IMG/VR virus record: IMGVR_UViG_2974506496_000001
Coordinates: 64,001 to 128,000 of that record
From: a virus
Lineage: Duplodnaviria; Caudoviricetes
DNA length: 64,000 nt
Strand: one strand, 5' to 3'
The position numbers were made by a program, and so were the translations under genes. Below the pieces are notes generated by a model. The model did no database searches. It was not told where the DNA came from and was given only the letters and a program-made list of their open reading frames with translations. This document shows positions 6,037-17,543 of this stretch, piece after piece; the first letter of the stretch is position 1, and each line of letters starts with the position of its first letter.

Positions 6037-7170
6037 ATGCAGTACAGTACCTTTAATACCACTAAAAACGATCAGATGGCTGAACCGATGTTCCTGGGTC
6101 AGTCGGTTAACGTCTCACGTTATGATCAGCAGAAGTACCCCGCGTTCGAAAAGCTGATTGAGAAACAACTTTCATTCTTCTGGCGCCCTGAAGAGGTGGA
6201 TGTTTCGCAAGACCGTATCGACTTCCAGGGGTTACCGGATCATGAGAAACACATCTTCGTGTCTAACCTGAAATACCAAACCCTGCTGGACTCGATTCAG
6301 GGTCGTAGTCCGAACGTGGCCCTGCTGCCGATCTGTTCTATCCCGGAACTCGAAACCTGGATTGAAACCTGGGCGTTCTCTGAAACGATCCACTCGCGCT
6401 CATACACCCACATCATCCGTAATATCTTTACTGACCCCTCCATCGTGTTTGATGACATCGTGACCAACGAACACATCAAAGCGCGTGCTGAGTCCGTCAC
6501 GGAGTATTACGACCAGCTGATTGAAATGACCATGTACCTCAACTTACTGGGTGAAGGTACTCATGTAATCAATGGTAAGAAAGTCGTGGTGTCGATGCGT
6601 GCTATCAAGCGTCTGGTCTACCTGTGCATCGTGTCAGTCAACGTGCTGGAAGCCATCCGCTTCTATGTCTCCTTTGCCTGCTCGTTTGCCTTTGCTGAAC
6701 GCGAGCTGATGGAAGGCAACGCCAAGATCATTAAACTGATCGCCCGTGATGAAGCCCTGCATCTGACCGGCACCCAGCACATGATCATGTTAATGAAGTC
6801 CGGTGCTGACGATGCTGAGATGGCGGAAATCGTTAAAGAGTGTGAAGCAGAAACATACGCACTCTTTAAGGACGCTGCAGAGCAGGAGAAAGACTGGGCG
6901 AACTATCTGTTCCAGGATGGGTCGATGATCGGTCTGAACAAAGAGATCGTGTGTCAGTACATCGAATACATCACCAACATCCGTATTCGCGCCATCGGTT
7001 ACGATGACATCTACGCCGGTGTCAAAGCTAACCCTATCCCGTGGATCAACTCCTGGCTGGTTTCTGACAACGTGCAACAAGCCCCTCAAGAGTCAGAGAT
7101 TACCTCGTATTTAGTAGGTCAGATCGACTCAACTGTCGATGCAGATGCGTTTGATAACTTCGAACTTTAA
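6037..7170 (+). CDS. nrdB: Ribonucleotide reductase class Ia beta subunit
   Basis: [46 protein letters not shown]; closely E. coli-like. Confidence 0.97.
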
Positions 7171-17229: not shown

Positions 17230-17399
17230 TAATTAAATACTAGGCAGCGTAATCATATACGTAAAGGGGTCTGGTGAAAGCCATATCCCTTTTGGTTATG
17301 CTGTCTTTTTTTTTTGGTTAAGAAATACTAGCCTTCTCCATTATATGCAATTTACACGATACACTTTTCTATTTACTACATCGGCAAGAGAGATAAGAC

Positions 17400-17543
17400 A
17401 TGAGCGCACCTGAAGAATTTGATATGGACGGCCTGGAATCACTGGATCTGGAAGGCGCTGAGAAAGCGGCAGAAGAGAAAGCAGCCGGCGGTGGCGAAGC
17501 CCTGTCTGATGGCGAAGCAGATTGCGAAGGTTGCAAGATCTAA
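17400..17543 (+). CDS. 47-aa acidic peptide ending in CxxC (NrdA C-terminal tail-like; not in ORF track)
   Basis: MSAPEEFDMDGLESLDLEGAEKAAEEKAAGGGEALSDGEADCEGCKI*; phage-typical codons; fills an otherwise empty gap. Confidence 0.75.
   Translation: MSAPEEFDMDGLESLDLEGAEKAAEEKAAGGGEALSDGEADCEGCKI

Follow-up and report, generated by a model that had tools for sequence, protein, structure and literature searches.

A small protein of Erwinia jumbo phages and Enterobacterales chromosomes that ends in a tail of the class Ia ribonucleotide reductase type

The window is a 64,000-nucleotide stretch of the genome of an Agricanvirus-type Erwinia jumbo phage (271 kb; the record is estimated to be 98% complete). 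The source DNA is 94-99% identical at the nucleotide level to the phages Deimos-Minion, MadMel, Desertfox and Rebecca. A mini-gene of 47 codons plus a stop lies on the plus strand at 17400..17543, and its product ends in DCEGCKI, as in the translation originally given. It is preceded by an intrinsic terminator on the same strand (17242..17315), which closes the upstream unit and consists of a 65-nt compound hairpin (17242-17306) followed by ten U. A scan for a simple terminator consensus upstream of the mini-gene found none, but RNA folding shows a strong hairpin with a U-run. Its predicted dG is -32.8 kcal/mol (z -5.57), and none of 200 shuffled sequences was equally stable. The hairpin is kept in Deimos-Minion, AH06, L008 and L009. 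Between the terminator and the mini-gene is a conserved AT-rich motif, CCATTATATGCAATTTACAC (17338..17357, plus strand), a candidate phage promoter; at this site CATTATATG is invariant across five Agricanvirus-type sequences. A search between the terminator and the mini-gene turned up no sigma-70-like site, and the motif may be a promoter for the phages' own RNA polymerase. A weak purine-rich stretch resembling a ribosome binding site, AAGAGAGA (17387..17394, plus strand), can be read 5 nt upstream of the ATG, and its AGAGA is kept in the four closest relatives. Because the terminator hairpin and the conserved AT-rich motif precede it, the mini-gene appears to open its own transcription unit. 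The terminator and AT-rich spacer of the original prediction are both confirmed.

The ORF is a real gene. It matches phrog_10239 with an E value of 9.3e-30, residues 1-47 aligning to profile positions 1-47 of 47, and the same profile is matched by L016, L018 and the C-terminus of gp034 of phage pEa_SNUABM_5. The orthologs in Deimos-Minion (gp112) and AH06 (gp115) are annotated as hypothetical proteins. Pairwise dN/dS among five orthologs is 0.09-0.42, which indicates a protein-coding gene under purifying selection. The ORF has no Pfam match. A phmmer search of the peptide against PDB sequences returned a single chance match (E 9.9), and a search for longer homologs with the 47-residue query, which is insensitive to a seven-residue tail, gave 121 word-sharing candidates and none at E ≤ 10. 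Neighboring genes in the window serve nucleotide metabolism and encode a MazG-type NTP pyrophosphohydrolase, a thymidine kinase and the ribonucleotide reductase (RNR) small subunit, NrdB.

The protein can be divided into a head and an arm. Residues 5-29 (17412..17486, plus strand) comprise an acidic-hydrophobic motif, E-E-F-D-M-D-G-L-E-S-L-D-L, and an A/E/K-rich helix, and are presumed to be the docking part. Residues 30-47 (17487..17540, plus strand) form a flexible acidic tail, GGGEALSDGEADCEGCKI, which contains a pair of cysteines (C42 at 17523-17525 and C45 at 17532-17534, plus strand) and ends in K-I. An AlphaFold2 model calculated from a 34-sequence alignment has helices at residues 9-13 and 17-29 with pLDDT values of 70-78, and residues 30-47 are coil of low confidence. 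The predicted shape is that of a small head bearing a flexible arm, as would suit a swinging tail. In the alignment of these 34 diverse family members C42, E43, C45, K46 and I47 of the tail are the only invariant residues. The head pattern F-D-x-D...L-[DE]-x-A-E is common to phage and bacterial members. The ORF matches neither PF00085 nor PF00462, and its CxxC is in a predicted disordered C-terminus rather than at the start of a helix as in the thioredoxin fold. It had also been suggested that a GLE tripeptide might be a phiKZ-type prohead protease site (S/A/G-x-E) and that the protein might be packaged in the virion. Packaging is unsupported: the tripeptide is not kept (ALG in AH06, ALD in L010, and absent in many members), and the family also occurs in phages of 40-75 kb and in bacterial chromosomes.

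The tail was compared with those of class Ia RNR large subunits (NrdA) by scanning IMG/VR DNA for CEGCKI-stop and CExGxCKI-stop and reading back the ORF ended by each match. Three classes of protein were recovered. The first are genuine NrdAs of 750-770 residues, including L021 (...RDGAGEEEAEDSCEGCKI; ...NTRDGAGEEEAEDSCEGCKI) and L041. The second are about 40 distinct acidic proteins of 40-86 residues which bear every tail variant seen on the NrdAs. They come from jumbo phages of 210-320 kb, phiKZ-like contigs and phages of 42-50 kb, and end in DCEGCKI, GCESGACKI, CEGGACKI or CEGGGCKI. The third are larger tail-bearing proteins, described below. The mini-protein of the window ends in D-C-E-G-C-K-I, the phage NrdA L021 in SCEGCKI and the host NrdA in GCESGACKI. 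The E. coli NrdA ends in ...RDGAEDAQDDLVPSIQDDGCESGACKI, in agreement with the ...DDGCESGACKI originally quoted for it, and the Erwinia amylovora NrdA in ...DDGCESGACKI. Seven of the small proteins end in GCESGACKI and are identical over these residues to both, and in members of the L057 type the match extends back to RDG, where the NrdA tail starts (e.g. ...MRDGGGEVVDEKDADGCESGACKI). Because the genuine NrdAs L021 and L041 bear it, the CxxC-K-I variant is a natural NrdA ending; phage NrdAs of about 750 residues end in ...SCEGCKI. Judged by sequence, then, the end of the mini-protein is of a genuine class Ia NrdA tail type, and the resemblance to the redox tail of RNR alpha that was first noticed at this locus is real. 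The protein has the acidic C-terminal arm, predicted to be disordered, the cysteine pair and the K-I of a class Ia NrdA, and it has no ten-stranded catalytic barrel (PF02867) and no PF00317 or ATP-cone domain. The possibility that the ORF is itself an NrdA or an exon of a split nrdA was rejected, as there is no NrdA-like sequence anywhere in the genome.

The RNR gene content of the phage is incomplete. nrdB (6037..7170, plus strand; PF00268, E 1e-52; phrog_86) encodes the class Ia beta subunit, is the only RNR subunit gene of the genome, and is 10 kb from the mini-gene. Its product closely resembles E. coli NrdB when compared by eye and retains an alpha-binding C-terminal tail close to that of the host NrdB, which ends in ...GENDFDDFQL. 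Because this tail is intact, phages that carry only nrdB depend on an active host NrdA. NrdB was detected by mass spectrometry in Deimos-Minion lysate, and the proteomic lists for Deimos-Minion and RAY lysates include NrdB and a MazG-like protein; gp112 is absent from both lists, an absence of little weight for so tiny a protein (PMC6690015). Neither PF02867 nor PF00317 has a match across the 271-kb, 98% complete genome, and the remark that nrdB stands in the window with no nrdA beside it was in this respect an understatement. No thioredoxin (PF00085) or glutaredoxin (PF00462) was found in the phage genome. AH06 and Deimos-Minion have the same RNR gene content, and pEa_SNUABM_5 has neither subunit.

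The absence of nrdA extends to the other carriers. PF02867 was found in none of 48 other contigs with the mini-protein, including 33 of at least 90% completeness, and in none of five N4-like carriers of the tail as a fusion (0/53 tail-carrying phage contigs overall). The same search found PF02867 in five of five NrdA-bearing contigs used as a positive control, and no mini-protein came from any NrdA-bearing contig that the tail patterns had picked up. Any NrdA target must therefore be that of the host, and the idea of a tail-less phage NrdA as partner is refuted. The mutual exclusion of mini-gene and nrdA is only suggestive, because the carriers fall into about 15 lineages and are set against no base rate for nrdA in comparable phages.

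Only five of the 33 complete carriers have nrdB, and four of these belong to one lineage (G007, G008, G010 and G011); the other 28 have neither nrdB nor a glutaredoxin gene. Two lineages, the Agricanvirus type and that of G007, G008, G010 and G011, combine nrdB and the mini-gene with the lack of nrdA. The latter lineage also encodes a glutaredoxin, whose gene adjoins the mini-gene in all four genomes, and so carries the beta subunit, a reductant and the tail, and lacks only the catalytic body. In L019 the glutaredoxin stop codon is followed after 2 nt by the start of the mini-gene; in L018 the mini-gene is 450 nt upstream of the glutaredoxin gene. This gene content, with nrdB-only phages and an adjacent glutaredoxin in one lineage, supports a link between the mini-protein and the RNR system.

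The glutaredoxins of L019 (6997-7251) and L018 (1144-1419) are clearly related when compared by eye. Their active sites are CVFC and the classical CPYC, respectively, and their order relative to the mini-gene is reversed. The CVFC site is like that of T4 NrdC. The nrdB of two related jumbo phages is interrupted, with open frames of about 250 and 148 residues lying 0.3-1 kb apart (G007:C1:5894-7090 and G010:C1:75890-77781), probably because of an intron or a homing-endonuclease insertion.

The encoding of such a tail as a separate small protein is widely conserved. A profile built from 34 small members matched 64 clusters at 50% identity (E ≤ 1e-3; 1.84 billion representatives), and the module is always C-terminal. 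The family is found in about 15 phage lineages. In small temperate-type phages of 42-50 kb the mini-gene lies among early or accessory genes. The larger tail-bearing proteins recovered by the scan include Acb4-family proteins (PF13876, the family of N4 gp49 and Sf6 gp66) of N4-like and other phages, proteins of 146-360 residues without a family, and gp034 of Rivsvirus pEa_SNUABM_5, which is hyperacidic and 208 residues long. The Acb4-family proteins end in DDCEGCKI, CEGGGCKI or CEGGACKI. These fusions are at L034:1164-1517 and L098:1781-2200, and also in L025, L029, L037, L039, L040, L043, L080, L089, L102 and L105. The tail on Acb4 proteins goes unmentioned in the paper that describes Acb4 (10.1101/2024.12.30.630793). 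A protein of 228 residues, P0076, has a cpYpsA-SLOG domain, the family head D-D-F-D-L-D-N-L and a degenerate end, GCDGGACTI, and is a second case of a nucleotide-binding domain fused to the module. A mini-protein ending in CEGGACKI (L109-L111), from a phiKZ-like jumbo phage, occurs in 272 collection blocks and is very widespread; its gene is a few kb from those for thymidylate synthase, a NADAR-domain protein and dCTP deaminase.

Homologs are also present in bacterial chromosomes, a point that the original prediction had missed: the host itself encodes a homologous mini-protein. A DNA pattern scan over one genome per bacterial species gave 100 stretches. About 60 of these are a conserved chromosomal ORF encoding 43-44 residues; the others are short ORFs due to chance, with no NrdA among them. 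The chromosomal ORF has the pattern M-x-DD-[IM]-F-[ED]-F-D-I-D-A-x-L-E-x-A-E...DCEGCKI and is found in Erwinia (including E. amylovora), Pantoea, Mixta, Serratia, Rahnella, Ewingella, Rouxiella, Hafnia, Budvicia, Sodalis and others. BLASTP aligns the phage protein with the E. amylovora copy over 42 residues at 55% identity (E 5e-8), and comparison of the phage and bacterial profiles gives an hhalign probability of 97.9% (E 4.9e-13); the homology therefore spans both the head and the tail. The phage protein has the features of this unnamed Enterobacterales microprotein: a length of 40-50 residues, F-x-F-D-I-D or F-D-x-D, an A-E...K-K-A helix, an acidic linker and DCEGCKI. A sample of 301 genomes of the order as defined by GTDB gave four matches, a figure of little meaning in so broad an order. 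The chromosomal copies are named only "hypothetical protein" in the sources, and no Pfam or NCBIfam model covers them. The literature search found no description of free RNR-tail microproteins. As far as the literature shows, the family is unnamed and small enough to have escaped Pfam, NCBIfam and any description. One bacterial protein of 93 residues (P0068) reads past ...DCEGCKI into a hydrophobic extension, owing to a lost stop codon or to an assembly or annotation artifact.

The chromosomal mini-genes stand alone in ordinary housekeeping contexts that differ between bacterial families. The order is yedI-[gene]-dgcQ in Erwinia and Pantoea, ylaC-[gene] in Serratia and glpM-[gene]-dcuB in Budvicia. 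None of the contexts inspected is a prophage or a defense island, and none has adjoining nrd, trx or grx genes. The host chromosome keeps the homolog as a core gene. In E. coli K-12 a blastn search with the Erwinia gene finds no match, and the sole protein with a CE..CKI end is NrdA. YodC, which occupies the syntenic yedI-dgcQ slot in E. coli, was considered as a homolog and rejected, as it is unrelated. The E. amylovora genome with the microprotein also encodes an NrdE ending in GCVSCSL and an NrdA that has a CESGACKI tail of its own. Because this NrdA keeps its own tail, the microprotein is an addition to the enzyme tail and not a replacement for it.

When the regions upstream of 55 bacterial copies were searched for NrdR boxes, a good palindrome, CCACTATATGTAGTGA, at -106, proved to be confined to the Hafnia/Ewingella/Rahnella clade (L186:3160-3175 on the minus strand; likewise placed in L129, L141, L162, L200, L208 and L211); it was not found in Erwinia. 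It is a single box in an intergenic region shared with the divergent yccJ. As a single box in one clade, absent in Erwinia, it was set aside as evidence of a link to RNR.

These features suggest that the mini-protein most likely plugs into the DNA-precursor enzyme system of the host. De novo synthesis of DNA precursors proceeds through RNR alone, and kinetic work in E. coli suggests that re-reduction of its active site via the alpha tail limits turnover. The two ideas of the original prediction that are still live are re-reduction of the host NrdA in trans and a decoy for thioredoxin or glutaredoxin. We hold with about even confidence that the protein is a diffusible copy of the alpha tail, reducible by glutaredoxin or thioredoxin, which acts on the host class Ia NrdA in a supporting role. 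The acidic-hydrophobic motif and helix of the N-terminal part would presumably dock, and the disordered 18-residue acidic arm of the C-terminal part would present, at its C-x-x-C-K-I end, a dithiol that imitates the class Ia RNR alpha redox tail. Glutaredoxin and thioredoxin are the established reductants of the NrdA tail (PMC4078304). Host glutaredoxin or thioredoxin, neither of which the phage encodes, would reduce the cysteine pair, and the reduced arm could then exchange either with the disulfide in the host NrdA active site or with that enzyme's own tail. The host alpha subunit, on which the phage must rely since it brings only NrdB, would thereby gain additional capacity for re-reduction, and the expected outcome would be sustained dNTP synthesis during replication of the 271-kb genome. 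That the pair is reduced, that the protein contacts NrdA and that the effect is stimulation rather than inhibition are all conjectured from sequence and gene content; a supporting role is favored because nrdB-only phages need an active host NrdA.

Several observations do not sit easily with a supporting tail. The host NrdA has its own tail and does not obviously need another, the 28 complete carriers mentioned above have neither nrdB nor a glutaredoxin gene, and in pEa_SNUABM_5, with no RNR genes, the module is on a 208-residue hyperacidic protein. The bacterial homologs show no linkage to nrd, trx or grx, and the Acb4 fusions and the degenerate tail on the cpYpsA-SLOG protein point toward counter-defense. 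The absence of nrdA from the carriers would be expected equally of an inhibitor, which would be incompatible with an NrdA of the phage's own.

An inhibitor or decoy is possible but unlikely. By a logic like that of Sml1, the peptide would occupy the entrance to the NrdA active site or the place where NrdA's own tail docks, or soak up reduced glutaredoxin or thioredoxin, so that host RNR would be throttled or reducing power redirected. Yeast Sml1, a small disordered protein that competes with the CX2C tail of R1, is a precedent. The mimicry is exact, reaching nine of nine residues of the host NrdA end, and carriers never have an NrdA of their own, as expected if the peptide poisons NrdA; most have no RNR gene of any kind. 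Yet the pairing of the mini-gene with nrdB in two lineages, in one of them also with an adjoining glutaredoxin gene, would make little sense if the host NrdA were shut down. A constitutive RNR poison would also be costly for the hosts that conserve the homolog as a core gene, and a dithiol peptide is a sink only if it is continually oxidised.

We think it quite unlikely that the arm is a portable counter-defense or other host-manipulation module, unrelated to dNTP supply and aimed at a different host protein that would recognize the NrdA-like C-terminus or its dithiol. We know of no defense system that involves an NrdA-type tail. The chromosomal homologs are in housekeeping contexts and not in defense islands or prophages, and the adjacency to glutaredoxin genes and the co-occurrence with nrdB point to RNR redox chemistry. 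What does suggest such a module is the company that the tail keeps: the identical tail type is fused to the Acb4-family sponge proteins of N4-like phages, a cpYpsA-SLOG protein bears the N-terminal motif with a degenerate tail, and the gene lies among early or accessory genes in temperate-type phages of 42-50 kb. Acb4 sequesters CBASS signals (bioRxiv 10.1101/2024.12.30.630793), and sponge proteins are often fused to other counter-defense modules (bioRxiv 10.1101/2025.07.12.664507).

A broader reading, which we regard as rather doubtful, is that the family is a hitherto unrecognized, detachable accessory part of the Enterobacterales class Ia RNR that phages have captured repeatedly. It would be a two-headed adaptor whose NrdB-like head docks on NrdA and whose arm delivers electrons. 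The head D-F-D-x-x-x-L (DDIFEFDI in bacteria) might be likened, speculatively, to the alpha-binding C-terminus of NrdB (...NDFDDFQL in E. amylovora, ...DDLSNFQL in E. coli). Such a head would dock in the groove of NrdA that takes the beta tail, and the C-terminal arm would bring electrons from glutaredoxin or thioredoxin to the active site. NrdA-less phages would in this way overdrive the host catalytic subunit, sometimes with an NrdB and a glutaredoxin of their own, and the Acb4 and SLOG fusions would tether sponge proteins to the same hub. The likeness of the head to NrdB or SSB C-termini was kept as a speculative lead only and not counted as evidence, since the motif is of low complexity, its register is ambiguous and, being internal, it has no free carboxylate.

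It is very improbable that the protein binds metal or is a generic acidic, DNA-mimic-like peptide, its CxxC end having come to resemble NrdA by convergence only. The protein is strongly acidic, the pEa_SNUABM_5 form is hyperacidic, and two terminal cysteines could bind Zn, Fe or Cu upon dimerisation. However, CEGCKI, CESGACKI, CEGGACKI and CEGGGCKI each occur on genuine NrdAs, together with the K-I and the preceding acidic run, and some members match the NrdA tail from RDG on; convergence on all of these is unlikely. Finally, a decaying remnant of the 3' end of a lost phage nrdA, or a spurious ORF, is scarcely credible: it would account for the homology of the tail to the NrdA end and for the missing nrdA, but the dN/dS values, the terminator-bounded unit 10 kb from nrdB, the conservation in bacterial core genomes as well as about 15 phage lineages, and the invariant N-terminal motif foreign to NrdA exclude it.

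A tail encoded separately as a microprotein would add a new level at which RNR is controlled or supplied, and a gene of only 144 bp would give phages a new route to exploit host nucleotide metabolism. Carriers of the family include plant-associated and clinical Enterobacterales, in which the gene is chromosomal, and many unrelated phages without the RNR large subunit.

Among known systems, the tail of class Ia RNR alpha (C754 and C759 in E. coli NrdA, ...DDGCESGACKI) shares with the mini-protein an acidic flexible arm, a CxxC or CxxxxC and a K-I end. The mini-protein differs in being an arm without the catalytic body, in having an F-D-x-D motif and helix foreign to NrdA, and in being encoded in phage genomes that lack nrdA, or in Erwinia whose NrdA has its own tail. 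In the split class II RNR of Pseudomonas aeruginosa, NrdJa/NrdJb, the cysteine-bearing C-terminal part works as a separate polypeptide. NrdJb, however, makes up a large part of the enzyme, and its gene adjoins that of NrdJa, whereas the mini-protein is only an arm of about 20 residues on an unrelated head of 25 residues with no enzyme gene nearby. The eukaryotic RNR regulators Sml1, Spd1 and Hug1 are small and disordered, and Sml1 interferes with the CX2C tail of R1. The mini-protein is likewise small and largely disordered and would also act on the large subunit, but the eukaryotic proteins are inhibitors, have no redox cysteine pair and are unrelated to it in sequence. Some poxviruses encode only the small RNR subunit, which pairs with the host large subunit. 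Facklamia ignava has an NrdB fused to glutaredoxin (PMC6187632). Both are accessory RNR parts that help a resident alpha subunit, as the mini-protein may be, but in neither is the alpha tail supplied as a separate gene. None of the NrdA tail, NrdJa/NrdJb, the Sml1-type proteins and the small-subunit viruses is a free tail protein of 40-50 residues. The chromosomal microprotein of 43-44 residues (M-x-DD-I-F-E-F-D-I-D...DCEGCKI) differs from the phage protein in being a stand-alone bacterial gene in varied contexts, absent from E. coli K-12; it has the same architecture and the same DCEGCKI end.
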